IMG/VR virus record: IMGVR_UViG_3300012347_000246
Length of the DNA stretch: 64,000 nucleotides
Origin: an uncultured virus (IMG/VR IMGVR_UViG_3300012347_000246)
Taxonomy: Duplodnaviria > Heunggongvirae > Uroviricota > Caudoviricetes
Direction: 5' to 3' (one strand)
Part shown: positions 1-53,300 of the stretch, in pieces
How the letters are laid out: every line of letters starts with the position of its first letter
Position numbering within the stretch: position 1 is the stretch's first letter
Notes under the pieces: model-generated
What the model saw: the letters and a program-made list of their open reading frames with translations, nothing else
What the model was told of the DNA's origin: nothing
Database searches by the model: none
Made by a program: the position numbers and the translations under genes

Positions 1-52
1 CTACCTTATACCGAGTTTGCAATCCGGCGCATAAACGCTCTGCCAACCGCCC
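1..52 (-). tRNA. tRNA-Cys(GCA), 3' part outside window
   Basis: Minus strand GGGCGGTTGGCAGAGCGTTTATGCGCCGGA-TTGCAAA-CTCGG; D arm and anticodon arm visible. Confidence 0.75.
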
Positions 53-59
53 ATAATTT

Positions 60-160
60 ACTATTTTAAAACACACTAACTAACTTGGCGTTGTAAGTCC
101 GCTTTCGGGGATGATTACACCGTTGGGTCCAAGCTAGTGGCCAATGTGTTTTAAAATAGT
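60..160 (-). repeat. Conserved-stem RNA cassette 1 (18-bp stem, 65-nt payload)
   Basis: Arms actattttaaaacacact (60-77) and aatgtgttttaaaatagt (143-160). Confidence 0.85.
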
Positions 161-283
161 TCCTAGCAGCCTAACCCTCACGCTCTCTTACTCTTGGGTT
201 AATGCGCCTTGCCTTCTCGTGAACAACGTCGAATAGCGATCCACCTTGTTCCGGGCCAGTGCCTTGCGGGCACACTACTATAA

Positions 284-371
284 ACTATTTTGAAACACAC
301 TACAGAACGACCACAATGTCCAAAAAGACCTGGAAGTCAAAACACTGTGCAGTAATGTGCTTTTAAATAAC
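284..371 (-). repeat. Conserved-stem RNA cassette 2 (52-nt payload)
   Basis: Arms actattttgaaacacact (284-301) and aatgtgcttttaaataac (354-371), imperfect. Confidence 0.75.
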
Positions 372-455
372 CTATATGTAAACACACTGACTCTCCAGTA
401 TTGCTACCTTCGCCGAGTTTGACGTCTTAGGTCGTGCAATGTGTTTGCATATAAG
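371..455 (-). repeat. Conserved-stem RNA cassette 3 (49-nt payload)
   Basis: Arms cctatatgtaaacacact (371-388) and aatgtgtttgcatataag (438-455). Confidence 0.85.
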
Positions 456-1347
456 TGGAGGACTGAGAATACATCTCTCCCAACAACACCTCGAGCATTA
501 TTACAAACCTTGCGAGTCTGCTTTCTCTCGACTTCCACTACAACCATATTGCTATGTATCATAGTCTGCTGTCAGCATCGCCGTTTTTAAAGCCAGGCAG
601 TAGGCTTGTCGTCACATGCTATTCTATGCTTTCTATCCCGTTGACCTTGCGAGCCATTAAGTCTTGCGAACTACGAAACTTCCTGCATAAACAGATTTCA
701 CCTTGCGAGTTACGTCTGACTAGATTCACTTGCGTGTCTAGTATTAGATGCTTTTCACATATGACCGAGTCAGTCTTTGCGTTTTAATGATAGTGAGAAT
801 CGAACCCACCGCATTCTGTTTAAGAGACAGATGTTCTACCAATGAACTATATCAACCTACTGCGATGTGCTGACTCAGTTGCTGCGTAAAGTTTTGGCTC
901 TACACAATACAACACACCACGTACCTTTCCTCTTGCGGAGTAATCAGTCGTCTTTCGCGACCAGCGTCTGCATTACTACAGCCACCACCCACTAAAACTG
1001 CATACGAGCTCTTAGGTGCAACCCTTCGAACCAATACACTACCCTTTCTCATACCAATTAACAAAGTTGGTTTCGCATAGAAGTCAGCACCACCTGTTAC
1101 TTTCCATCTACTCAAGTTCCCCTTGATGCAATCTCAGGCTTGTAAGCAAACGTTCTTCCCTATGCACTTTGCGTCACTGTTACATCCACCCGTCGCTGAG
1201 TGAACGCTCCCTCACAGGAGTGAGCAGGCTTGTCTAAATGAACCATTGCTGGCGGAGTTATGTAGGCATACCTCCTTTGGCTGTGTCACCACAGTTATTC
1301 TTCGTCTAGCTGGGCTAACCATACTATCCAGGACATTAAACTGCCCC
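456..1347 (-). ncRNA. GOLLD-like large structured RNA with embedded tRNA
   Basis: About 890 nt with no credible ORF; at least six C-GCAA-G tetraloop hairpins on the minus strand; 3' end TGTATTCTCAG resembles the GOLLD 3' terminus as recalled; tRNA-array context. Confidence 0.7.
785..856 (-). tRNA. tRNA-Lys(CTT) embedded in the GOLLD-like RNA, weak acceptor stem, no CCA
   Basis: TCTGT-CTCTTAA-ACAGA anticodon arm; GTGGG-TTCGATT-CTCAC T arm. Confidence 0.75.
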
Positions 1348-1350
1348 AAA

Positions 1351-1502
1351 TTCTTATACATCTGCACACACGCAGGAATCGAAACCTGCTGCACTTATTT
1401 TAAGAAAGTGCATGTAGCCTTATAGCAAACAGTTTCGAACCTGCTTACTACCACATCAATTCTGTTTTCGACGCAGAACCTCTATGTGCATGTGTATAAG
1501 AA
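1351..1502 (-). ncRNA. Stem-bounded RNA candidate with two T-loop-like motifs
   Basis: Ends ttcttataca / tgtataagaa pair; internal GCAGGTTCGAAAC and GCAGG-TTTCGATT-CCTGC. Confidence 0.45.
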
Positions 1503-1519
1503 CTTCTTATACGTATCTA

Positions 1520-1593
1520 TTTTAAAGAACTTTGTTAGTTAGCACAATGTCTAACTAAGCTTCTATTGTAGCAAACTTTTCATTTGCTGTCAA
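1520..1593 (-). promoter_or_regulatory. Sigma70 promoter followed by boxB-like hairpin and boxA-like element
   Basis: TTGACA-17-TACAAT (1593-1565); hairpin TTAGTTAG/CTAACTAA; GTTCTTTAAAA. Confidence 0.8.
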
Positions 1594-1610
1594 CAGTTAT
1601 TTAGAAATTT

Positions 1611-1888
1611 ATTTTGATGCCTCTTTTTACCTGCTTACAAGGTTACGGGTAAGACTTGCGTCTTTCAGTTGACCCTCATGCAACCAGTAGAGCGTTACTC
1701 TACTTTATTGCAATCCTGGTTCCTGCGTATTGCTACGTGGAACAGATCGTTTCTAACTCATAGGTGTTAGACGCCACAGTAGCCGCTTACAGACTACACA
1801 AGAGTTCCCAGCTTTCTATCTGGACCGGATTTTCGGCAAGAGTTACGCAACCTATTAGCGTAGTACGCCTGCTTACTTTGCATCAAAA
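1611..1888 (-). ncRNA. Structured ~280-nt ncRNA candidate
   Basis: Terminal pairing TTTTGATGC/GCATCAAAA; several GNRA hairpins; own promoter upstream; no ORF. Confidence 0.55.
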
Positions 1889-1893
1889 CAAAT

Positions 1894-1958
1894 TTTTAAA
1901 GAACGTTTGTTAATTGCTTAACATGAGTGTATTGTAACACATTTTTCTTTATTGTCAA
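1894..1958 (-). promoter_or_regulatory. Sigma70 promoter followed by boxB-like hairpin and boxA-like element
   Basis: TTGACA-16-TACAAT with TGn (1958-1931); TGTTAA-GCAA-TTAACA; GTTCTTTAAAAA. Confidence 0.8.
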
Positions 1959-1977
1959 CTACTGTTGAAAACAAACT

Positions 1978-2062
1978 TGGTGCGGATGGTCGGACTCGAA
2001 CCGACACGCCTTTCGGCGCTAGAACCTAAATCTAGTGCGGCTACCAATTACGCCACATCCGC
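1978..2062 (-). tRNA. tRNA-Leu(TAG)
   Basis: Full cloverleaf, long variable arm, CCA. Confidence 0.95.
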
Positions 2063-2070
2063 TTAGATAA

Positions 2071-3237
2071 TTACTTATCGTTTAAGCTAGTATTATATGC
2101 GAAGTTGATTTTACTGTCAACATGTTTTTGCATGATTTTAGTGAAATCTTCAAACTTCTCTGCTTTTGGAGCACAGTAGCCGCATATACATCTAACTTGC
2201 TTGCATTGTATAACAGGAACAGTATTCCCGTCAAGCAGTTTTTGTTGATCGTCTAGAATTTTTTTGGTATCACTTAGGTTCCCGATTGGGCCTATGCCAC
2301 CGTCGAAGTTCATTTGACAATCTTTGTTTACATAAACATCACCATTGTGTTGTCTAATGTATAAGAAGTACCAGTTTACACTGCAATACCAATCTTTAAA
2401 ATCCGCATGTGGTACAAAGCCCATTGGATGTTTTAAGTCTTGGTTAGTACATAATCCTCTGCCGCCACAACAGCTACGACCAATCTTGCCCATACCAACT
2501 GTATCATCTGTTACTTCTTTTAACATGATGATCTTGTTGCGACTCTTTTCGGGCGTCTTGCTTTCGTAATAGTCTGCAAAGAACTTGAACTGATCTTTAT
2601 TGTATTGCCACTTAGGTGTAGGTGTGTCGTTGGCTTTAACTACATGCTTGATATCATGCTGTTTGCAAAACTCCACAGCTTGCATGCTTATATCCCACAT
2701 TTGAGGATCGTTATGCATCACAAACACTACTTTTTGCTTCCTGTTGATGGCCTTATTGTAGAGGATGTTGTCTAGCACTTGCTGGCGCTGCTTAGGCAGT
2801 GCTTCGCTGTGAAAACTAACTGTAAACTCATCTACGTGTTTGGTAACCTCGGTCCACAAGTTCTTTCCTGCTACGCCGTTAGTGGTTACTGTAACTGTTA
2901 ATGTCCAGTCATCCTTGAATGCTTCATGGCGCTTTCTAAGCTCTTGCAGAATCTCTACAATGTTAGGATGATAGATAGCTTCGCCGCCGTAAAGATTTAG
3001 AACCACGATGCGTTGCCACTTAGGCTTGAGCATCATGTAACGATGAACATAATCGAACATAAAGTCGATTGTGTTTAAGCATTCATCTAGCGGAGGGTGT
3101 GAGCTATGGTTGTCATGCCACTGCGGTCCACAATAGCTGCAATCAAGATTACAGCGTAGAGTTAACTCCCAATCCAATAGCAGAATTGGCCTATTAGACG
3201 GATCAATTGCTGGCTCAACGCTTACAATCTTATCCAT
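2071..3237 (-). CDS. Radical SAM protein with C-terminal Cys cluster
   Basis: CNLDCSYC motif, YGGE, TTNG, C-terminal CxxxxCxCxxC. Confidence 0.9.
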   Translation of the reverse strand: MDKIVSVEPAIDPSNRPILLLDWELTLRCNLDCSYCGPQWHDNHSSHPPLDECLNTIDFMFDYVHRYMMLKPKWQRIVVLNLYGGEAIYHPNIVEILQELRKRHEAFKDDWTLTVTVTTNGVAGKNLWTEVTKHVDEFTVSFHSEALPKQRQQVLDNILYNKAINRKQKVVFVMHNDPQMWDISMQAVEFCKQHDIKHVVKANDTPTPKWQYNKDQFKFFADYYESKTPEKSRNKIIMLKEVTDDTVGMGKIGRSCCGGRGLCTNQDLKHPMGFVPHADFKDWYCSVNWYFLYIRQHNGDVYVNKDCQMNFDGGIGPIGNLSDTKKILDDQQKLLDGNTVPVIQCKQVRCICGYCAPKAEKFEDFTKIMQKHVDSKINFAYNTSLNDK

Positions 3238-3808
3238 ATACCATTACCAGTTGTTGTTCAAACCATTCTTTGCATTCTGCAAAGGGTTTAGCAAATCGCA
3301 AGTTAAACCAAACTCGAGATCCTGTATTGTTGATGCCATGCATCTTTTGAATGTCCAGTAACCAACCTTCTCCAGCGTTACTCGGATACACTTCTATGTA
3401 GTCTTGGTCCTTTACATAGGTAAGACTGTCTGTGGTGTTAATGAAATAGTTAAACCCAGTATTCTGGCCGGGTTGGTCTTTGTGCTCTGCACCATTGCCC
3501 ACTAGTTTGTTCACGGACACTATGGTAGGCTCTAGCTCACTTAAACTTGCTAACATTAGCGGAAGAAAGGGCATTGACTTTTCGATCAATGGGCCTGTCA
3601 TATTATACCAGTAACTGCTACCGTTAGTAACGTGGCTAATTGTGCCAGCAGATCCTAGTTCATAGTGGTATCCATACTCACTATACTTGTATTGCTTTGT
3701 GATTTTATCACTGTTTGAGGTAACTAGACCAATGCCATGCTCTAATACTGCAATGGTATTTTTCCAATTATGATCAATTCTGATCGGGGTTTTGTATGTT
3801 AGTAACAT
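3230..3808 (-). CDS. Hypothetical protein, possible 2OG-Fe(II)/cupin fold
   Basis: HKD...HGINN...RVW pattern resembles the HxD...H facial triad. Confidence 0.55.
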   Translation of the reverse strand: MLLTYKTPIRIDHNWKNTIAVLEHGIGLVTSNSDKITKQYKYSEYGYHYELGSAGTISHVTNGSSYWYNMTGPLIEKSMPFLPLMLASLSELEPTIVSVNKLVGNGAEHKDQPGQNTGFNYFINTTDSLTYVKDQDYIEVYPSNAGEGWLLDIQKMHGINNTGSRVWFNLRFAKPFAECKEWFEQQLVMVYG

Positions 3809-3811
3809 GTA

Positions 3812-4092
3812 TCTATAAAGAGGTGGAGCATATAAAACTTATTTTTCAACCGTGGACTGATGCACGGCCGGTAGCTATCCGGCTCGCTTCGTAAGCTCAA
3901 ACGGGTAATTGCCATGCCCTAACTTACACATCTTCTCAGAGTCTCAATAATTCGCGATTTTAAAATCCATTTGTTGCCTCGGAGGTTTCCGATATTTGAT
4001 CACGGGCCACTATTCTCAGGCAAGAAAGATCGCTACTAAATCTACCACAGGTAATAAGTCACTGCCTTGTGTATGCTCCACCTCTTTATAGA
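3812..4092 (-). ncRNA. ncRNA or leader candidate bounded by a perfect 21-bp inverted repeat
   Basis: tctataaagaggtggagcata (3812-3832) / tatgctccacctctttataga (4072-4092); promoter directly upstream. Confidence 0.55.
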
Positions 4093-4106
4093 CAAATTGT
4101 TGAGTT

Positions 4107-4134
4107 ATTATAACAAAATTTGAATTTAAGTCAA
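4107..4134 (-). promoter_or_regulatory. Sigma70 promoter
   Basis: TTGACT-16-TATAAT with TGn. Confidence 0.7.
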
Positions 4135-4141
4135 CTGGAAT

Positions 4142-5335
4142 TTACGTAGTTAGGTCCAGTAAGTGGAACAATGGAGTAGAATTCAACTTTAATCCAAATC
4201 CATAAGTTCCTTCTACTAGGCTCATTGGGCTTACCCCACTTGTAAATTCTTTTGATCCATGGTAGAACGCTTTCCGCAATGAATCTAGCTCAGGAAGTTC
4301 GTGCAGCCAAAAATACCAATCGCTTCGTTCTTTATTTGGCTTCACAACTTGAAATTTATTATTATCCCACGTATCTTTATACAACACTGAATTAAAAATT
4401 CGACGCTGAGCAGCATCATAGTGAGACTTGTTGTGATTATTAGTTAAAAACCAAATTGGGCTTTCTAATAAAGGTCTTGCTGCTTTGTTATGATTAAAAT
4501 ACAGTGCAATTTGATAAGCCTGCTCCACTGGCAACAGAGGCAGGTCCGCAGACCAATAAAATAGTTCAACTCTGTCCTCTCCCATTGCTTCAACCATGCT
4601 TGCATTAGTGTGAAAGCTGTCTAGGAACTTAAAGTATACCTTTCCATCAACTGCTGTAACATACGGTTTGTCAGTTCCAATTACATGACCAACTTTTCTA
4701 CTTGTTGGCGATACCAACGATAACTTAGTCTCACAGTTGGGATCAAGACGAATAACCGTACTGCCCAGACTTAAGTGACCGATATTGATTTGGGACAATC
4801 TATTTGTAAGTTGATCCACTCCCAAGGACTGGTTTCCTAAATACTCTGCATAATCAACAATGTTGATTTTTATTTCAGGATTGGATATTTTTAATCTATC
4901 AAGAGTTGGCTTAATGGAATAGTTCCATTCGCTTGCTGCATTCCTTGCAGAAGTATCCTTAGTGTTAGGAGTGTAACCATTTCCATCAATAAGATGTTTT
5001 GGCCAACGCACCATTACTTCGTCAAGTTTAATATTGTTTGTTAAAAACGTTTCCAATATGTTATGACTATCGGCCCCGCCTGAATAATGCAATACTACAT
5101 AATCGTATTTGTCTCTAATTTGTAAAGCACGTTCCTTGTACAAAGTTGTTAGTGGGATTTTTCCCAACAACGATTTGTCAAACTTTTCCCAAACTTGATT
5201 GTGAAAATAAAAAGAAACTGGGCCGGATCTGTTTGCATACGCATGTCGATATGCATCAATTTTTGCAGTGAATGGCACTGAGTTAGAAACCCAACATCCA
5301 TATTTACTACTGAGTGTTTTTGAGATATTAACCAT
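4142..5335 (-). CDS. PP-loop (adenine nucleotide alpha hydrolase-like) protein, paralog 1
   Basis: LYKERALQIRDKYDYVVLHYSGGADS; ELFYW motif shared with paralogs. Confidence 0.8.
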   Translation of the reverse strand: MVNISKTLSSKYGCWVSNSVPFTAKIDAYRHAYANRSGPVSFYFHNQVWEKFDKSLLGKIPLTTLYKERALQIRDKYDYVVLHYSGGADSHNILETFLTNNIKLDEVMVRWPKHLIDGNGYTPNTKDTSARNAASEWNYSIKPTLDRLKISNPEIKINIVDYAEYLGNQSLGVDQLTNRLSQINIGHLSLGSTVIRLDPNCETKLSLVSPTSRKVGHVIGTDKPYVTAVDGKVYFKFLDSFHTNASMVEAMGEDRVELFYWSADLPLLPVEQAYQIALYFNHNKAARPLLESPIWFLTNNHNKSHYDAAQRRIFNSVLYKDTWDNNKFQVVKPNKERSDWYFWLHELPELDSLRKAFYHGSKEFTSGVSPMSLVEGTYGFGLKLNSTPLFHLLDLTT

Positions 5336-5362
5336 TAGTTGTTGACGTTAACACTATTTATA

Positions 5363-5436
5363 TGGTGCTCCTACAAAGAATCGAACTTTGGATTACGCTA
5401 TACCACAGCGTCGGTATGCCATTTACCTATAAGAGC
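5363..5436 (-). tRNA. tRNA-Thr(GGT), atypical loop bases
   Basis: ACGCT-GTGGTAT-AGCGT, T arm, CCA. Confidence 0.8.
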
Positions 5437-5437
5437 T

Positions 5438-5514
5438 TGGTGCCCCGGGCGAGACTCGAACTCGCAAAATTTGGATTTTGAATCCAACACGTATACCAAT
5501 TCCGTCACCGGGGC
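5438..5514 (-). tRNA. tRNA-Leu(CAA) with short variable loop
   Basis: TTGGA-TTCAAAA-TCCAA, Leu-type D arm, CCA. Confidence 0.9.
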
Positions 5515-5518
5515 AGGA

Positions 5519-6727
5519 TTAGTTGGTGCGTACTGCAAATACTTCTTGAAAGGACTCTCCCCTAATCACATCATATTTTTTTGTATAATCAAAAAATGCT
5601 ATTGGATCATGCGGGGTTGATTCAATTAGCCCCTTCTTTACATTTAACAACTCTGTACGCAATACTAGATAATTTGGCGCAGTTAAAATCTCTACCGATT
5701 TATCAATTTCAGTGATTGCTTTACTTCGTAGCTGCTTTGGTAAATTGTTAAAATGCATGCCAGGCGGCGAAGTCACATTGTAACATTTTATACCAATTGA
5801 TGCATTTTCATTGTATAGTTTCATTAGAAAAGAGGCAAGTGCAGAAAAGTCCATTAAACTATATGCAGATATAGCAGTGGTCACTTCTAAATTAAATGGA
5901 GCAGGCAACTGATTTAATTTAAGAACATTACTTTCGACTTTAGGCCAATCAGTGCCGCTGCGAATATATTCCGCAGATTTTCCTACTGCGTCAATGCTCA
6001 TTACTAACTCTACTTTTTTAAACTCACTAAGTCGAGTAATAAAAAGTGGATTATACACACTACAATTGGTATATAACTCTAACTCCATATTCCTACTAAA
6101 CCCATTGCTAATTAAGTAGTCTAGATAGTCGTAATATTCTTTTATCAAAAATGGTTCGCCACCGGTTAAACATACCTTTCGAACTGACGCCAACAACGAC
6201 TTGTCCTTGAGACTTTCAATTACCGCAGGGTCTGCTTTAGTTATTGGAATTATACTGTGCTCGAGATGACTTCCGGCTTTATCCGGCTTGATCTTATGTT
6301 CAATTTTTTCTGCTGCAAAGCTGGAACTAGATGTTTCATCGCACATCCTGCATTTCATATTACATAGATTGCTAAATCTAAGTTCAATTCTTGTTGGTAC
6401 TGTTGGACTGTCAGCAGTAAACTTGTTTGCAAACCACTGGTCTTCATACTCAGGTTCGGGTCCTACATTGTAGTAATTCCAAATTGCTCCGCGTGTGCTT
6501 TTTAGTCCATGACGCTCACGCTCTTTGCAACCAGAACATGCAGCAGGAACGATCCCTTGCTGCATTTCTTGTTTTATATTCTTGAGCCATTCGCTATTAA
6601 AATAATCAGACGGGGTTGCTTCCATCTCTAAATTTTTAATCATGTGACACGGACTGGGCGAGTTAGCATGGTAATACAACAATGACCACGGGGCAGGACA
6701 GAAGAACTTCTCCGAAAACTTTGCCAT
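5519..6727 (-). CDS. Radical SAM protein with N-terminal twitch/SPASM-like Cys domain
   Basis: CPAPW...CSGC, CNMKCRMC, TGGEP; start moved to the ATG at 6727 (AGGAG RBS) because the longer ORF overlaps a tRNA. Confidence 0.9.
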   Translation of the reverse strand: MAKFSEKFFCPAPWSLLYYHANSPSPCHMIKNLEMEATPSDYFNSEWLKNIKQEMQQGIVPAACSGCKERERHGLKSTRGAIWNYYNVGPEPEYEDQWFANKFTADSPTVPTRIELRFSNLCNMKCRMCDETSSSSFAAEKIEHKIKPDKAGSHLEHSIIPITKADPAVIESLKDKSLLASVRKVCLTGGEPFLIKEYYDYLDYLISNGFSRNMELELYTNCSVYNPLFITRLSEFKKVELVMSIDAVGKSAEYIRSGTDWPKVESNVLKLNQLPAPFNLEVTTAISAYSLMDFSALASFLMKLYNENASIGIKCYNVTSPPGMHFNNLPKQLRSKAITEIDKSVEILTAPNYLVLRTELLNVKKGLIESTPHDPIAFFDYTKKYDVIRGESFQEVFAVRTN

Positions 6728-6742
6728 ACTACTCCTATAATT

Positions 6743-6818
6743 TGGTGCCTCTAACCGGGGTCGAACCAGTGACACACGGATTTTCAATCCGCTGCTCTAC
6801 CAACTGAGCTATAGAGGC
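6743..6818 (-). tRNA. tRNA-Phe(GAA)
   Basis: Canonical cloverleaf, CCA. Confidence 0.95.
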
Positions 6819-6917
6819 AAATTTTAAATGGTTGTGGGTTTTTACCACTCCTGAACCTTGTTCCACCGCTCGGTCAAAGACTTATGTGGCGATCCCGTGC
6901 AGCTCGCATTACACTAT

Positions 6918-7038
6918 ACCATATAGAAGCACTCTCAAATGCAGGCCTAGGAGGAGTCAAGCTCTGAAACCGTTGCGTATGCATCCACTAAGGTCTCTTC
7001 TCCCGCTTTGTCTTATGCTAAGAATACTTCTATATGGC
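6918..7038 (-). repeat. Conserved-stem RNA cassette 4 (85-nt payload)
   Basis: Arms accatatagaagcactct (6918-6935) and agaatacttctatatggc (7021-7038); compensatory changes. Confidence 0.85.
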
Positions 7039-7137
7039 GGTGCATAAGTTAACCTAAAACTAGTCTAATATCGCGGCCGCAATATTTCGTCTATGTCTTA
7101 GGATATACACGTTGGTACCTTGCGTACCTTACGCACC
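7035..7137 (-). ncRNA. CCA-ended stem-bounded small RNA candidate
   Basis: GGTGCGTAAG ... CTTATGCACC-GCCA. Confidence 0.5.
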
Positions 7138-7237
7138 ATATAAAAACACACTACGTGGAATCGAACCACTGACCCTTTCACTCCGTAGAGACCGCATTAA
7201 TTACGCTTAGTCGCCGACTAGTATGTTTTTATATGGT
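7135..7237 (-). repeat. Conserved-stem RNA cassette 5 (67-nt payload with T-arm)
   Basis: Arms 7135-7152 and 7220-7237; payload contains GTGG-TTCGATT-CCAC. Confidence 0.9.
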
Positions 7238-7345
7238 GACAGTTTAGTCCGATAACTGTCAAAGAGTTGTTGTAGTTTGCTCTAGAAACAACATACATTT
7301 GGTCGTCATGACCGGGCACTCCACGTTTGAGCCTTCTGGTTAGAT

Positions 7346-7421
7346 ACCATATAGAAGCACACTAACCATCATTGGTACTGTTTGCAACCAGTACGGATTT
7401 GAAAATGTGTTTCTATATAGG
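7346..7421 (-). repeat. Conserved-stem RNA cassette 6 (40-nt payload)
   Basis: Arms 7346-7363 and 7404-7421. Confidence 0.85.
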
Positions 7422-7505
7422 CTCCACCGTTAACGACAGCATTCGTCCTGGCTTTATTTTATGTCGGTTAATGCACGGTGGACACACATGCCGACGGGGT
7501 TACAG

Positions 7506-7644
7506 TTTCAATGATGGGATTCGAACCCACTAACTACCCGTGCGATGCGGGTTGTGCTACGCTCGCCATACATTCAGTTTACTCCGTTACGTACCGGACC
7601 AATTGTATGACTTTGCACTATCTTTCCATGTCGTCTTCATTGTT
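7506..7644 (-). ncRNA. tRNA-like element with expanded D region
   Basis: CAATG/CATTG acceptor-like pairing; ACCCG-CATCGCA-CGGGT arm; GTGGG-TTCGAAT-CCCAT; no CCA. Confidence 0.45.
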
Positions 7645-7730
7645 ACCATATAAAAACATACTGCTGGCTATGCCCTTGGCGTCCCAGAAGCTATCAGAGT
7701 CTAACTGAATGCAATATGTTTTTATATGGT
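7645..7730 (-). repeat. Conserved-stem RNA cassette 7 (50-nt payload)
   Basis: Arms 7645-7662 and 7713-7730. Confidence 0.9.
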
Positions 7731-7827
7731 CGGTGCAGGTGAAATCGCATCACCGAGCCAAGTTATGTCTTTTGTACATTATGCACAGAACTCGCTGAGG
7801 CTTCCTCAGTACCTAGGATATGCACCA
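7727..7827 (-). ncRNA. tRNA-shell RNA with CCA
   Basis: TGGTGCA / TGCACCG-A-CCA acceptor; GGTGA-TGCGATT-TCACC T-like arm; non-tRNA interior. Confidence 0.55.
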
Positions 7828-7905
7828 TATGTAAACACACTATTAGTTTCGCCATCATCCGACTTTAAAATCAGCTGCGGTTTAAATAATGTGTTTGCAT
7901 ATGGT
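7824..7905 (-). repeat. Conserved-stem RNA cassette 8 (46-nt payload)
   Basis: Arms accatatgtaaacacact (7824-7841) and aatgtgtttgcatatggt (7888-7905). Confidence 0.9.
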
Positions 7906-7977
7906 GGGACTGTTCGGGCTCGAACCGAAAACCTACCGGTTAAAAGCCGGTTGCTCTAACCATTGAGCTACAATCCC
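7902..7977 (-). tRNA. tRNA-Lys(TTT)
   Basis: Canonical cloverleaf, CCA. Confidence 0.95.
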
Positions 7978-7980
7978 GTA

Positions 7981-8054
7981 TGGTCCTCCGCCTAGGTATC
8001 GATCCTAGTTTTACTGGTTAAGAGCCAGTTACATCACCTTAATGTTTGCGAAGG
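7981..8054 (-). tRNA. tRNA-Lys(CTT), atypical D and T arms
   Basis: ACTGG-CTCTTAA-CCAGT; T loop ATCGATA; CCA. Confidence 0.75.
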
Positions 8055-8280: not shown

Positions 8281-8763
8281 CTACATGTTTCTAAATTGAA
8301 TTGTACGCCAGGCTTCAGGATCGGGTTGTTCATTCTCATCGTATGTCCAACCTAGTGCCTTCATCATCTTGTGCTTAACACGCAAGTTAGGTATACGTGT
8401 ACGTTCAGTATCACTGAACCCCATCATGATTCCAACTTCTGCTACTGCACCACTGCGACATAAGCCAGCCATACAGTGTACTACAACATTCATTTTATTG
8501 TCAAGTGCATGTTGAAGTAGTTTCACTATTTCATTTGCTTGTTCGTCTGTAATTTTAGCTTCGTCCGGAAACCCATCTTTATCTTCGGCATCTAAAAACT
8601 CGAAACGATGTGCTTCCTTAAAAGTGTGTGCAGGTGTTGGCCACCAACTCGGACACGGATCCATAATTTGAATCAACATAGAATTGTCCCCAGCATCATG
8701 ATGCAATTTCATCGGTACATCGGCTGCTGCTACGTTTTCAATCCAAGGCATTTTATTCTCCAT
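8281..8763 (-). CDS. Cys-based (PTP/dual-specificity) phosphatase
   Basis: VVVHCMAGLCRS CX5R motif. Confidence 0.85.
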   Translation of the reverse strand: MENKMPWIENVAAADVPMKLHHDAGDNSMLIQIMDPCPSWWPTPAHTFKEAHRFEFLDAEDKDGFPDEAKITDEQANEIVKLLQHALDNKMNVVVHCMAGLCRSGAVAEVGIMMGFSDTERTRIPNLRVKHKMMKALGWTYDENEQPDPEAWRTIQFRNM

Positions 8764-8995: not shown

Positions 8996-9601
8996 TTACA
9001 TTGTAGGCGCAGAACCATTGCCGTAAACTTCTTCACGACGTTTCATACCCACAGTGCCACCCTCTGCTTCAATACGTTTGATAACGTCTTCAAACAAGAT
9101 AGGCGCAAAGTTAGTGTGCTCTACACATACACAATGGTATCGTGGATCGATAATTTCACCACCGTAGCCATTTGATTTCATTACACGACGATCATGTAAG
9201 TGACCGTGAATGTTAACACCAAAGCGACCTAACGACGATTCATGTAAAGGGATATGACTCAAGATCATTCCGTTCAATACATGATACCCACGCACATCAC
9301 GAAAGTGTTCGGTATATTCCTCTAAGCGAAAAATATCGTGGTTGCCTTTGATTAACACCTTGTCGCCATTTAGGCGGCGCATGATGCCTAATGCTTTACG
9401 GTTAATAACAACGTCACCTAAGTGATATACTTTGTCATTTGGGCGCACTGTGTCATTCCAACGGCGCACCATTTCTTCGTCCATTTCGTCAGGATTGTCC
9501 CACGGACGCAATTTTACGTTAGGGTCATCTTTACTCATAAACTTGCAGACACCCATGTGCCCGAAATGAGTATCACTGACTAAAAAACTTGCCGGCATCA
9601 C
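8996..9601 (-). CDS. Calcineurin-like metallophosphoesterase
   Basis: SDTHFGH, HLGD, GNHD, HGHLH motifs. Confidence 0.9.
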   Translation of the reverse strand: MMPASFLVSDTHFGHMGVCKFMSKDDPNVKLRPWDNPDEMDEEMVRRWNDTVRPNDKVYHLGDVVINRKALGIMRRLNGDKVLIKGNHDIFRLEEYTEHFRDVRGYHVLNGMILSHIPLHESSLGRFGVNIHGHLHDRRVMKSNGYGGEIIDPRYHCVCVEHTNFAPILFEDVIKRIEAEGGTVGMKRREEVYGNGSAPTM

Positions 9602-18191: not shown

Positions 18192-18283
18192 TGGTAGGAG
18201 TGGCCGGAATCGAACCGACATTGGCCAATTATCTGTTGCACACGGGATATAAATCCGCTGTTTTACCGTTAAACTACACTCCC
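18192..18283 (-). tRNA. tRNA-Ile(TAT) with long variable region
   Basis: GCGGA-TTTATAT-CCCGT; ~21-nt variable region; CCA. Confidence 0.7.
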
Positions 18284-20923: not shown

Positions 20924-21154
20924 TTAGTTTTCGTAGTCAGTGTAATCTTCGTCTTCGTCGTACTCACTTGAGTACTCTTTGAATGCTCTGCTTAATGCAG
21001 CATCCGTGCTTGCAAATTCTTTAAGGTCTAGATCGTTTAAAACGTCGACCATAATACTCATCAAGTTGTCAGCAACCTCTTGCCTGTCCTTTTGTGAGAT
21101 GTACTGTTTCATGGTAGTGTACACTTCACTTAGTACTTCAACTTCAATACTCAT
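20924..21154 (-). CDS. Small acidic hypothetical protein
   Basis: Operonic ORF. Confidence 0.7.
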   Translation of the reverse strand: MSIEVEVLSEVYTTMKQYISQKDRQEVADNLMSIMVDVLNDLDLKEFASTDAALSRAFKEYSSEYDEDEDYTDYEN

Positions 21155-22082
21155 TTGATTTCCTTAACCTTGTTAATTGAACTATTTTTCGTTCCATCTT
21201 TAGCCCGGCGCATGCAAATACACATAACGGCCTTGGCTGGGTATTTATTTCGTTTGCAATGTCTAGTTGTTCAGTTTCTTGTATAGTATCAAACCCAATT
21301 GGTTCAAATCTATCATCAAACGGATCAAAATGACAGCACAACGTATACTTGCCACTTGCTGTAATATATAGTCCTGGCGCCTCTAGGTGGGCACAATTCT
21401 TTGTTGTTAGTTTTCGTTCAGGCGTTACTCTAAAGTTAAAGGTACTATCTTTACTCCAGGGCTCTAACATATATTGCTCGCCTGTTTGATAATTGTACGC
21501 TGTTTCAACGTTACGCACACCCTCGATTAGTTCAAAATCATCGAATCCCAATTCTTTAGCCATTTTAATGCAGGCATTGAGTTGATGTTCGTTATGCTTA
21601 AAGGGGATAAACTGCCAAACTGCGTGACCACCAGCTTGAATGAAGGCTGTGGCGTTTGCAATTATTTTGTTAAAGTCTGTGCCTTGGCGGTATATCTCAT
21701 GCACACCTGCTAGCCCGTCGATACCAAACCACACTTTGTGATTTACGTTTGCTAACTTTTGTCCCATCTCGGTCCACCATTCAGTGTTACGTAAACTACC
21801 GTTAGTGTGTATCTGGATGTACTGAACTTTAGGTGCTACCCACTCTAATATTTCATTTAGTTCAGGATGAATTGCAGGATCGCCGTAGCGACCACAGAAC
21901 TGAATGTCACGTAAGTTTGGCAACGCTTCAACTGCTGCCTTTAACTTGTTTACATCTAGATTCTGTGGTACTAGGTTATCTTTGAGACCGTAACCGTTTT
22001 TGTTCCGAGCACAGCTAGGACACCAAGCATTACATTTTGAGCTTAACTCAACGTGTAAGCTCTTGATGTCCTTTAACAGCAT
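21144..22082 (-). CDS. Radical SAM protein
   Basis: CNAWCPSC, GDP, HTNG, FGIDG. Confidence 0.9.
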   Translation of the reverse strand: MLLKDIKSLHVELSSKCNAWCPSCARNKNGYGLKDNLVPQNLDVNKLKAAVEALPNLRDIQFCGRYGDPAIHPELNEILEWVAPKVQYIQIHTNGSLRNTEWWTEMGQKLANVNHKVWFGIDGLAGVHEIYRQGTDFNKIIANATAFIQAGGHAVWQFIPFKHNEHQLNACIKMAKELGFDDFELIEGVRNVETAYNYQTGEQYMLEPWSKDSTFNFRVTPERKLTTKNCAHLEAPGLYITASGKYTLCCHFDPFDDRFEPIGFDTIQETEQLDIANEINTQPRPLCVFACAGLKMERKIVQLTRLRKSNEY

Positions 22083-51668: not shown

Positions 51669-53300
51669 TTATTTATTGTGGATATTGTCCCGCAGAAACT
51701 CGTAGTGAGTAGGCAAGGTATCAATATGTGCCAATACTTCTTCTTTGTGCTTTAACCAGTTATCGTACACTTGTTTACGTAGCTCCGGAGTTTCGCCAAG
51801 TCGAGCATCTTCGTAACGCAGGAAGTTTGGTTCTACCGGGTTGTACCCCATGCCTGCTGCGATGTAAATAATTCCGCCCATGTTGTTATCAAACCTGCGA
51901 ATTCTATGCATACGCATACCTAAGTCTGTAGTTGACCTAAGATCGTGGTCCAATGTTGATAGTCCCGACAAACTAGATAAATTAGACATAGTTCGAGAAT
52001 AACTAACATCACCGGATACTTCTTTCCAGTATGGAGTGTCATTTCGTACGCTCAATGCATAATGTTGACTAATGAAGTCCTTGAACCCCATAATTTGCTC
52101 TTGGAATCCAAAGTTAAACAAGTCAACATCGTAATTACTTACAACGCCGTTACGCATTGCTAGAGTGCTGCATAGTTTAACAATGCCTTCATGTGTTAGC
52201 ATCAATCCAGTAGATTCTAGTGGCTCAATAAAACCATTGGCAAGCCCAATGCCCACTACGTTTTTAACCCATGCACGTTCGTGTACACCGTGTTTAATTT
52301 TGATGTGACGTACTTCACACTTTTCTGCACGTTCTGCATCCGGAAATAGCATGCGATTGCTTTTTAGATGTTTACGTAACTGTGCTTCTGCTTCTGCTTC
52401 CGTTGCATGTTTACTGCTATAAACATATCCTGTGCCAATTCGATTCCACAAAGGAATGTTCCACACCCAGCCCGCTTCAATAGCAGTACAACTAGTATAG
52501 TTTTCCATCTCTGCTTCTTTGTCAATATATGGAATAACCGTTGCTACTGCTCTGTCATTTAACAGTGTATCGTTAAAACTAATAAAAGGAACCTTGAGTG
52601 TTTGATCTAATAATATACTGCGGAATCCCGAGCAATCGATAAACAAATCAGCGTGGATGTGATCGCCTTCTTTGGTGACAATTTTTTCAATACTCTCGTC
52701 GTCTCGTTGAATTATTTTGTCAACTGTTGCGACAATATGCTGCATCCCAGTTGGCAAACAAACATAATCACGCAGATACTCCCCAAACAATGCAGCATCC
52801 ATATGGTATGCAGTATCGTGATTAAAATTGAATCCCCTAACTTTAAAATCCTCGTTCCGAGTCATTTTGTTTCGGTCAGTCATTAAAATACTGTCGTGGT
52901 AAAATTCTGCAAAGTTTTCGTTAGGAATAGCCGGATTGTCGGCTTTTGCTAAAAACCACTCCATTGGGCCACGCGGCTTTTCTGTAAAATCCATAATACC
53001 AAACGGATAATGAAATTTATGTGGGTGTTCAGTTGGGTTTTCTCTAAAGTCAATAAACTTAATACTGGTCTTGTATGTTGCATTGCAATGATGCATCCAA
53101 TCCTCGTCCTTAAGACCAATCATTGTCAAGAATTGGTTAATATGACCAATAGTACTTTCACCAACACCAATTGTGGGAACTGTTGCACTTTCTACTAGAG
53201 TTAGTTTAATATTTGGCAGCAATCTAGATATTCCTGCTGCTGTCATCCACCCACTTGAACCGCCACCTACGATACAAATACTTTTTATATCATGTCTCAT
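51669..53300 (-). CDS. Tryptophan halogenase-family flavoprotein
   Basis: GGGSSG, GVGEST, K, FIDCSGF, GWVWNIP, FIEPLESTG. Confidence 0.9.
   Translation of the reverse strand: MRHDIKSICIVGGGSSGWMTAAGISRLLPNIKLTLVESATVPTIGVGESTIGHINQFLTMIGLKDEDWMHHCNATYKTSIKFIDFRENPTEHPHKFHYPFGIMDFTEKPRGPMEWFLAKADNPAIPNENFAEFYHDSILMTDRNKMTRNEDFKVRGFNFNHDTAYHMDAALFGEYLRDYVCLPTGMQHIVATVDKIIQRDDESIEKIVTKEGDHIHADLFIDCSGFRSILLDQTLKVPFISFNDTLLNDRAVATVIPYIDKEAEMENYTSCTAIEAGWVWNIPLWNRIGTGYVYSSKHATEAEAEAQLRKHLKSNRMLFPDAERAEKCEVRHIKIKHGVHERAWVKNVVGIGLANGFIEPLESTGLMLTHEGIVKLCSTLAMRNGVVSNYDVDLFNFGFQEQIMGFKDFISQHYALSVRNDTPYWKEVSGDVSYSRTMSNLSSLSGLSTLDHDLRSTTDLGMRMHRIRRFDNNMGGIIYIAAGMGYNPVEPNFLRYEDARLGETPELRKQVYDNWLKHKEEVLAHIDTLPTHYEFLRDNIHNK

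Follow-up and report, generated by a model that had tools for sequence, protein, structure and literature searches.

A GOLLD RNA with a tRNA-shaped domain in its linker, encoded in the tRNA array of a freshwater jumbo phage

Introduction

To our knowledge, GOLLD is among the largest and most elaborate RNAs of bacteria and phages, and we know of no function assigned to it, despite the solved cage. One member of the family raises a question about the only part of GOLLD that resembles something understood: what is a tRNA doing inside such an RNA, and does it ever leave? This member lies near the start of a 64,000-nucleotide stretch of DNA from an uncultured virus (IMG/VR record IMGVR_UViG_3300012347_000246; the whole stretch is called the window below, and all positions count from its first letter). 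It is a further GOLLD with a linker tRNA, a kind already in print, as tRNAs or pseudo-tRNAs at this place are described in the accessible parts of bioRxiv 10.1101/2024.12.08.627333, PMC12990946 and PMC6582537. The copy in the window is therefore routine; its family context is what yields testable statements about the tRNA-like part. On balance, and with somewhat better than even confidence, we take the best explanation overall to be a GOLLD with a retained, unreleased tRNA-shaped module.

Results

A complete GOLLD RNA on the minus strand

An earlier note, made from the letters and their open reading frames, had placed a GOLLD-like giant RNA at 456–1347 without naming a strand. Searching the whole window with cmscan (Rfam 15) bears out the family: the GOLLD model RF02032 matches 460–920 on the minus strand with a score of 207 bits (gathering threshold 150; E = 4.7e-57), and this untruncated match covers model positions 1–416 of 416. 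The nearest record, an IMG/VR fragment of 62 kb (G001), has an identical GOLLD score. For ROOL, the other giant RNA considered at the outset, there was no match in the window, GOLLD being the sole large non-tRNA match, and a permissive Rfam scan of 1–5400, flanking structured regions included, gave neither ROOL nor any other further family at E ≤ 1.

The window and G001 are 98% identical from 437 to ~1349, with both flanks unrelated or rearranged, and this block of homology points to an RNA unit of ~890–910 nt; the extent proposed at first agrees well with the unit of 437–1349 common to relatives. The longest ORFs overlapping 456–1347 have 77 aa (554–787, plus strand) and 71 aa (900–1115, minus strand), and 1–2070 contains none of 80 aa or longer. 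The description as ~890 nt without a credible ORF is confirmed. The richness in GCAA that had been noticed is real as a modest enrichment, with 12 sites on the RNA strand of 437–1349 compared with 5.9 ± 2.2 in dinucleotide shuffles, 8 of 500 of which reach 12; half of the 12 sites (six) are CGCAAG. We are close to certain that ~437–1349 on the minus strand is a GOLLD RNA. Against 50,697 phage records, blastn of 440–1400 gave one weak match (Xanthomonas phage BUDD, 67.8% over 26% of the query), and megablast of 2071–8000 gave none, that is, no close cultured relative in that collection.

Domain structure and covariation

From 5' to 3', the RNA is composed of the following parts:

921–1349, minus strand: GOLLD 5' domain, the variable half, outside the Rfam model, beginning with the P1 hairpin GGGCA/UGUCC at 1346–1331
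862–920, minus strand: first hairpin of the Rfam model (model positions 1–63), with an outer stem 920–914/868–862, inner stems and the loop CCAAAA
870–877, minus strand: 5' arm of helix 24, UGAGUCAG, in a bulge of the first hairpin
785–856, minus strand: tRNA-like domain with anticodon CUU (Lys), called as tRNA-Lys(ctt) by ARAGORN and matched by Rfam RF00005 with 59.6 bits against a cut-off of 29
766–773, minus strand: 3' arm of helix 24, CUGACUCG
460–765, minus strand: conserved core of the GOLLD 3' domain (model positions about 159–416)

Relatives (at least 120 IMG/VR loci) were fetched by a pattern from the junction of the linker and the 3' domain, and the window was aligned with the 54 unique loci that have the 38-nt version of this pattern and full flanks (alignment A2), leaving out L027, an evident false positive. 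The structure was assembled from the RNAalifold consensus, the Rfam pairs of the first hairpin, the GAGUCAG/CUGACUC helix of the earlier note and the 3'-terminal hairpin. In these 55 sequences, 96.2% of 13,589 cells are paired, compared with 37–43% with slid partners, a percentage that is flattered because most of the structure was derived from the same alignment. More telling are the compensatory counts, with both-side changes in 194 of 252 pairs, compared with 83–102 with slid partners; none of 500 shuffles reaches the real values.

The 5' domain (~430 nt) is 73–93% identical to more than 90 GOLLD loci among the matches listed; its helices 1–21 are 88.7–100% paired and all 21 contain pairs changed on both sides, so that 921–1349 has the character of the structured, less conserved ~400-nt 5' domain of GOLLD. 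The first hairpin has a 9-nt bulge on its 3' side, and its helices 22–23 are 98.2% and 97.5% paired. In the 3' core, a long-range helix formed by 765–757 and its partner, six CGCAAG-type loops and the 3' motif GAUGUAUUCUCAGUC are present, with helices 31–44 being 92–100% paired. Both-side changes occur in all of helices 22–24 and 31–44, giving the covarying, multi-helix 3' domain of the family. Unlike in most relatives, where it is longer and has a UUAGC loop (A2 columns 873–890), the 3'-domain hairpin at ~660–672 is a short CGCAA hairpin in the window and in five relatives; contacts between subunits could differ here.

The linker is closed by a family helix

The earlier note had also paired GAGTCAG (767–773) with CTGACTC (870–876) and read the resulting helix as enclosing the tRNA. 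This helix (helix 24 above) is present and real, and it extends to 8 bp (877–870 with 766–773); in the 55 sequences, with 97.9% of cells paired, five of the eight pairs are compensatory and the other three invariant, variants being GAGACAG/CUGUCUC, GAGGCAG/CUGCCUC, GUGUCAG/CUGACAC and GAAGUAG/CUACUUC. Its 5' arm lies within the 9-nt bulge of the first hairpin, making it a pseudoknot-type helix that is absent from the Rfam structure line. What does not stand is a special relation to the tRNA: by eye, equal complementarity is found in GOLLDs without one (L012, L017, L023, L039, L079, L103), so this is a family helix closing the linker and not an adaptation to the tRNA. It may form within one chain or between the chains of an oligomer, the covariation being compatible with either.

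The tRNA-like domain has an intact body and a defective acceptor end

The insert sits in the unpaired linker of the RF02032 model (positions 63–158). That it is a tRNA-Lys(CTT) at 785–856, as first read, is supported by both ARAGORN and the Rfam tRNA model, and the D, anticodon and T arms are intact, with a canonical GG in the D loop and UUCGAUU in the T loop. The acceptor end is as weak as had been described: G1.U72 and U2.U71 are followed by five Watson–Crick pairs, and after A73 the chain continues with AAAC instead of CCA. The cloverleaf of a canonical tRNA is thus present, and the seven-pair acceptor stem and the encoded CCA are not. The window has 30 tRNA genes in the ARAGORN output, all on the minus strand, of which 28 encode CCA, or 29 once the His call, one base out of register, is corrected. 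Position 39 of the insert is A, not U.

Free tRNA-Lys(CUU) and tRNA-Lys(UUU) genes are found at 7902–8054 of the window, and the insert is unrelated to the former (7981–8054). Its nearest kin are instead the inserts of the closest GOLLDs listed (L081, 96%; L002, 93%; L034, 92%).

Inserts of related GOLLDs share this architecture

For a survey of 121 stretches (at least 120 loci plus the window), an insert was defined as an ARAGORN tRNA ending 1–12 nt before the GCAAAG motif. Among the matches listed, 75 of the 121 have one; all 75 belong to the 101 stretches with the 38-nt pattern, and the 20 with a 39-nt pattern have none. Counted over unique stretches, inserts are called in 66 of 108. In these 66, again among the matches listed, the anticodons are Asn GTT (33), Lys TTT (11), Lys CTT (7), Arg TCT (4), Thr TGT (2) and Asn ATT (2), with seven others found once each. 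The 23 stretches with the 38-nt pattern but no call, inspected by eye among the matches listed, consist of 19 degraded tRNA-like inserts, three short linkers (L007, L008 and L083) and one false positive. Several of the degraded inserts, again by eye, keep the anticodon arm and have lost the T loop.

The acceptor-stem columns (helices 25–26) are unreliable in the MAFFT alignment, so ARAGORN boundaries and a T-loop anchor were used for the acceptor statistics. Among the matches listed, CCA is encoded by one of 57 unique embedded tRNAs and by 297 of 311 free tRNAs in the same loci (1/57 versus 264/276 with the T-loop anchor). In the same comparison, the mean number of Watson–Crick acceptor pairs out of seven is 3.93 in embedded and 6.19 in free tRNAs, and the top two pairs are both non-Watson–Crick in 24 of 57 versus 6 of 311. 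G73 is found in one of 26 embedded Asn(GUU) inserts, compared with all 10 free tRNA-Asn, also among the matches listed. In the body of the insert, the D, anticodon and T stems (helices 27–30) show compensatory changes across the 55 sequences.

The anticodons themselves are biased: UU at positions 35–36 (anticodon NUU) is present in 45 of 57 embedded tRNAs, and U36 in 52 of 57 versus 104 of 311 free ones, in counts that ignore relatedness and come from a sample picked by one sequence pattern, among the matches listed. Ten pairs of embedded tRNAs that are at least 90% identical have differing anticodons (Asn/Lys, Asn/Thr and Lys CUU/UUU, among the matches listed). A free tRNA with the anticodon of the insert occurs within the available flanks in only 7 of 48 loci, among the matches listed. 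The CCA, G73 and anticodon patterns are unreported in the GOLLD literature that we searched; Weinberg 2009, Morgado 2020 and the supplements may contain them.

Genomic surroundings

The window encodes T4-type proteins (large terminase, tail sheath, tail tube, gp15, UvsX, UvsY and a gp32-type SSB), and the completeness rating of 18% for the 62 kb of its relative G001 suggests a jumbo phage. The carrier is a freshwater T4-like jumbo myophage with the GOLLD inside its tRNA array; with 30 tRNAs, T4-like genes and an IMG/VR relative, the locus has the phage location beside tRNA genes that is typical of the family. In relatives, tRNAs usually both precede and follow the GOLLD (among the matches listed), and in many of them a tRNA or a promoter occupies the spot directly upstream of its 5' end. 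Three radical-SAM genes lie in or just past the tRNA array. Three elements frame the RNA:

1565–1593, minus strand: putative sigma-70-like promoter, a consensus match only (TTGACA, 17 nt, TACAAT, with TG; 11 of 12 consensus positions)
1363–1490, minus strand: tRNA-like five-way cloverleaf in the MFE fold, directly upstream of the GOLLD 5' end
373–455, minus strand: long AU-rich hairpin directly 3' of GOLLD, with a fold of −25.4 kcal/mol, outside the Rfam model

The predicted promoter could drive both the tRNA-like element and GOLLD. For the element itself, the fold has z −3.9, equalled by 0 of 200 shuffles. It combines an acceptor-like stem of 8 bp and an extra arm with a T arm GCAGG-UUUCGAUU-CCUGC and a loop UCUUAAAAU that resembles an anticodon loop. 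ARAGORN makes no call for it, even when introns are permitted and the threshold is lowered. The element may act as a signal for processing and so define the 5' end of GOLLD. The motif TGTATAAGAA, considered as a promoter or processing motif before this end, was rejected for lack of enrichment in the window (6 matches versus 6.56 expected). On the other side, the 3' hairpin keeps an 18-bp stem around a hypervariable interior; its helices 46–47 are 86.2% and 89.6% paired, 14 of 17 pairs are changed on both sides, and the homology between the window and G001 stops inside it, at 437. It is a candidate hairpin for processing or termination.

Two further observations concern the neighborhood. A second structured RNA candidate of ~330 nt, with its own putative promoter, lies at 1595–1925 on the minus strand (fold z −5.05; eight compensatory pairs among five sequences; no Rfam match). 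Between GOLLD and the truncated tRNA-Cys at the start of the window are three hairpin cassettes, which are exchanged wholesale between the window phage and G001.

RNA libraries contain the continuous form

Twenty public runs match the stretch or part of it; of these, 16, which come from 16 studies, are recorded as RNA, almost all of them freshwater metatranscriptomes. We mapped contigs from four RNA libraries, each of a different study, on 1–2400. All four cover the GOLLD region, with contigs that show no strand, ends or level and for which DNA carry-over is possible. A contig of library X3 (record 13; 653–1302, two differing letters) bridges both tRNA junctions, and contigs of X7 (record 24; 489–885) and X5 (record 19; 751–876, no differences) bridge the 3' junction by a 31-letter rule. 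The continuous form through the tRNA therefore exists in RNA libraries, in contigs that cannot show processing. In one contig of X2, 787 is joined to 854, a skip of 66 nt that nearly coincides with the tRNA body (side 30, 90% likeness); the joint may come from an insert-less relative, from a jump of reverse transcriptase across the acceptor stem or from real excision. Within 1–2400, cover is absent at 81–320 and 2081–2400, which is no evidence on expression level. Summed word depths, likewise not a measure of expression, are about 8.7k–88k (X2) and 6.5k–24k (X5) over 561–1360, and about 340 (X2) and 175 (X5) over 1361–1920.

Discussion

Probable retention of the tRNA-like domain

We consider it likely that the tRNA-like part stays in GOLLD and is not released as a working tRNA. 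A transcript probably starts at the sigma-70-like promoter (1593–1565) or arises by read-through of the array, and it is then probably trimmed at both ends, at the upstream tRNA-like element (1363–1490) and at the downstream long hairpin (373–455). By analogy with the cryo-EM structures of other GOLLDs, the RNA would then assemble into a 12- to 14-mer cage. In the accessible text of bioRxiv 10.1101/2024.12.08.627333 and PMC12990946, these cages are closed 12- to 14-mers, with a linker that is not resolved and points into the cavity; the homo-oligomeric cage (10- to 14-mer as a family trait) is, according to the same portions of both sources, known only from cryo-EM of other GOLLDs. The linker of the window RNA, and hence its tRNA-like domains, would by the same analogy face the interior. 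The domain would be covalently kept in GOLLD as a tRNA-shaped module, its anticodon arm and elbow intact and on display, with an acceptor end built against maturation and charging.

Several results argue for this. In the family, they are the absence of CCA, the weak acceptor ends, the missing G73 of Asn-type inserts, the anticodon swaps and the degraded inserts; for the window, they are the free Lys(CUU) and Lys(UUU) genes and the contigs that are continuous through the tRNA. A Northern blot in Mycobacterium aubagnense adds to them, where the GOLLD insert was judged a pseudo-tRNA and no separate product was seen, as far as the available part of PMC6582537 reports.

Other points speak against retention. 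The intact, covarying body of the cloverleaf would also be expected of a tRNA that can be released, and in most relatives the insert could be the sole nearby copy of its anticodon, a free one being found in 7 of 48 loci. Many bacteria mature tRNAs without an encoded CCA by means of RNase Z and the CCA-adding enzyme, a route that the host of the window phage may share. A73 and the Lys anticodon of the insert fit what we take to be the Lys identity elements, so that charging might be possible once CCA had been added.

One rival reading is storage and release, which we think unlikely. Here a real tRNA-Lys(CUU) gene would be parked in GOLLD and its product shielded from RNases inside the cage; on opening of the cage, or before its assembly, RNase P and RNase Z would excise the tRNA, CCA would be added and AAG would be decoded late in infection. 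The idea is already in print as "inhibited storage" of the GOLLD tRNA (accessible part of PMC12990946). It would explain why the cloverleaf is intact (59.6 bits, with canonical D and T loops, A73 and CUU) and why the stems of the insert covary (helices 27–30), it fits the scarcity of free tRNAs with the same anticodon in the flanks (7/48 loci, among the matches listed), and the X2 contig without the tRNA body is what excision could leave. It is hard to reconcile with an acceptor end whose top pairs are G.U and U.U, with 56 of 57 embedded tRNAs lacking a CCA that 297 of 311 free tRNAs have, and with Asn-type inserts that lack G73 (1/26 versus 10/10; both counts among the matches listed). Degraded inserts moreover persist among GOLLDs, the window phage already owns free Lys(CUU) and Lys(UUU) genes, RNA-library contigs run continuously through the tRNA, and in M. 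aubagnense no released product was seen.

Quite improbable, in our estimate, is that the tRNA shape serves GOLLD itself as a cis-acting handle or is a tolerated remnant. As a handle, it would let RNase P or another tRNA-binding factor dock or cut, GOLLD being split into two halves that the linker helix and tertiary contacts hold together. Alternatively, its role as a handle would be in folding or assembly. The 8-bp flanking helix could indeed keep the halves together after a cut. The variable linker and the dispensable tRNA (0 of 20 with the 39-nt pattern; short linkers in L007, L008 and L083; among the matches listed), the existence of degraded inserts and the tRNAs that usually flank GOLLD on both sides suit either version. 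A functionless leftover of GOLLD's life inside tRNA arrays, however, is not expected to retain, in dozens of lineages, both a canonical anticodon loop and three stems with compensatory changes, nor to show a strong NUU bias (45/57, among the matches listed), and the conserved 5' flank AGUAGGUU and the fixed placement 3–12 nt before GCAAAG argue for a constrained module. Judged from sequence, this flank and placement would not discriminate between a handle and a display function.

A possible decoy for tRNA-targeting factors

If the tRNA-shaped module is retained, as we favor, the question becomes what it displays. A speculative and rather unlikely answer is that it is a decoy for a tRNA-targeting factor: the displayed anticodon arms would bind or titrate a recognizer of Lys/Asn/Thr-type loops, such as a tRNA-cleaving defense nuclease or a modification enzyme. 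In its more specific form, which we hold to be a long shot, inserts of the lake type would be non-chargeable bait, with 12 to 14 anticodon arms per cage (Lys/Asn/Thr/Arg(UCU)) absorbing or misdirecting a host factor directed at these very tRNAs, by attack or by modification; anticodon nucleases of the PARIS, PrrC or RloC kind would be examples. The starting point is an overlap with published targets: PARIS AriB cuts tRNA-Lys(UUU), Thr(UGU) and Asn(GUU), according to the accessible part of 10.1101/2025.02.04.636281, and the anticodon preference of the inserts overlaps these targets, which suggests, as speculation, bait for a tRNA-targeting defense. The PARIS-specific motif of the E. coli AriB targets, U36-A-A-U39, was looked for and is absent from the window insert, which has A39; from its letters, no feature would tie this insert specifically to PARIS.

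Were the bait reading true, the fast turnover of anticodons on otherwise constant bodies would record an arms race, and GOLLD would gain its first function, as an RNA-only counter-defense organelle. With a retained bait rather than a stored tRNA, work on GOLLD could turn to genetics with tRNA-targeting defense systems in laboratory strains.

Comparison with known systems

The solved GOLLDs are env-38 (833 nt, 14-mer, PDB 9MEE) and that of Streptococcus agalactiae (700 nt, 12-mer, 9L0R), as given in the accessible part of PMC12990946. Like these, the window copy (~890 nt) matches the full model, combines a conserved 3' domain with a less conserved 5' domain and a variable linker, and is located in a phage beside tRNA genes. 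Unlike env-38, which lies downstream of a Met-tRNA in the available text of bioRxiv 10.1101/2024.12.08.627333, it belongs to a freshwater subfamily with a tRNA-like domain in the linker, and its hairpin at ~660–672 has the short CGCAA form.

Mycobacterial GOLLDs also have a tRNA-shaped insert at the same place of the RNA and within a horizontally moving tRNA array: the pseudo-tRNA of M. aubagnense (PMC6582537), and in Mycolicibacterium a tRNA-Phe in the J13/15 linker (from Morgado 2020, as cited in the accessible part of PMC12990946). The differences lie in the insert and the carrier: tRNA-Phe in Mycolicibacterium and a chromosomal location on the one hand, and Lys(CUU) in a freshwater, lytic-type jumbo myophage on the other.

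The tRNAs of phage T5 offer a functional comparison. T5 tRNA-Lys(UUU), Thr(UGU) and Asn(GUU) counter PARIS AriB, and in vitro the change U39>A abolishes AriB cleavage of E. coli tRNA-Lys (both from the accessible part of 10.1101/2025.02.04.636281). The T5 anticodons overlap those that dominate the GOLLD inserts among the matches listed, and A39 of the window insert parallels the change that abolishes cleavage. The T5 tRNAs, however, are free and chargeable and replace cleaved host tRNAs, whereas the GOLLD insert is embedded, without CCA and with a weak acceptor end; any link of GOLLD to defense systems would be a conjecture from the overlap of anticodons. Finally, ROOL is also phage-borne near tRNA islands and cage-forming, according to the available text of bioRxiv 10.1101/2024.12.08.627333: ROOL and GOLLD share a genomic niche and both build cages, with unrelated sequences and folds.

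A second structured RNA candidate adjoining GOLLD

Adjoining the giant GOLLD RNA is a further candidate for a structured RNA, about 330 nt long and preceded by a promoter-like sequence:

1595–1925, minus strand, structured RNA candidate
1958–1931, minus strand, sigma-70-like promoter of the candidate, by consensus match (11 of 12 consensus positions, with TG)

On folding, the candidate has a minimum free energy of −101 kcal/mol (z = −5.05), and the predicted structure is closed by a long AU-rich stem and includes several loops of the GNRA type. Conservation is 89–97% in G001, the nearest IMG/VR record, and in three further GOLLD loci (L081, L034, and L003); when these four are compared with the window, the 105 predicted pairs show eight compensatory and eight one-sided changes. 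Two RNA libraries contain a 2.3-kb contig that spans 1348–1941, and a permissive Rfam scan of 1–5400 gave no match to the candidate at E ≤ 1. The candidate may represent an RNA family not yet described.

A tRNA-like element and hairpin cassettes flanking GOLLD

A predicted tRNA-like element lies a short way upstream of where GOLLD begins, and 3′ of GOLLD are three tandem hairpin cassettes of about 85–100 nt each with conserved AU-rich stems:

1363–1490, minus strand, tRNA-like five-way cloverleaf (predicted fold, z = −3.9)
61–160, ~280–366, and 373–455, minus strand, hairpin cassettes

In the predicted cloverleaf, an acceptor-like stem of 8 bp is combined with a T arm of canonical appearance, an extra arm, and an anticodon-like loop of 9 nt, UCUUAAAAU. 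ARAGORN, including its intron option, did not call it, and Rfam on 1–5400 did not match it. The element is also found in G001, there with about 150 extra nt before GOLLD.

All three cassettes keep their stems, which are of the UAUUUUAAAACACA...UGUGUUUUAAAAUA type, around unrelated interiors; the stem of the one directly 3′ of GOLLD (373–455) covaries in relatives (helices 46–47 of the GOLLD alignment). G001 has about 340 unrelated nt in place of 56–436, between flanks that are 98% identical, and pieces of the cassettes are found again elsewhere in related arrays. The cassettes may be either processing hairpins or recombination cassettes.

Embedded and free tRNAs

In one contig from the X2 RNA library (depth 1262, side 30), 787 is joined directly to 854; the 66 nt skipped are almost exactly the embedded tRNA body between acceptor pair 3:70. 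This joint could represent a natural variant lacking the insert, a jump of the reverse transcriptase, or excision. Among the related IMG/VR loci, some GOLLD inserts carry odd anticodons: TTA (L033), which reads the stop codon UAA, ATG (L020), ATT (L013/L021), and the four-letter TTTC (L116).

Three further genes of the surrounding tRNA array are:

1–52, minus strand, tRNA-Cys(GCA), within which the window begins
7981–8054, minus strand, atypical free tRNA-Lys(CTT) (ARAGORN)
18192–18283, minus strand, long tRNA-Ile(TAT) (ARAGORN)

Because the window begins within the tRNA-Cys gene (1–55 matches the G001 tRNA-Cys at 6172–6247), the array runs on past the window start; in G001 it continues with Cys, Met, Val, and Gly. 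The free tRNA-Lys, with an odd D arm and the T loop GAUCGAU, is absent from the Rfam tRNA matches at gathering score in a whole-window scan. tRNA-Ile(TAT) genes of 90–94 nt, unusually long for this tRNA, recur in L025, L033, L044, L045, and L074, and may contain an intron or an extra arm.

Auxiliary protein genes

Several protein genes accompany the array or lie among the phage structural genes:

2071–3237, 5519–6787, and 21144–22082, minus strand, radical-SAM genes in or just past the array, one weakly QueE-like
8281–8763, dual-specificity-phosphatase-like protein, between tRNA genes
8996–9601, phosphoesterase (phrog_547, 8e-48), between tRNA genes
51669–53300, minus strand, tryptophan-halogenase family (PF04820, 3e-111), amid structural genes

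Together, the radical-SAM, phosphoesterase, and phosphatase-like genes may be a set for tRNA modification or repair. The tryptophan-halogenase-family gene is an unusual auxiliary gene.
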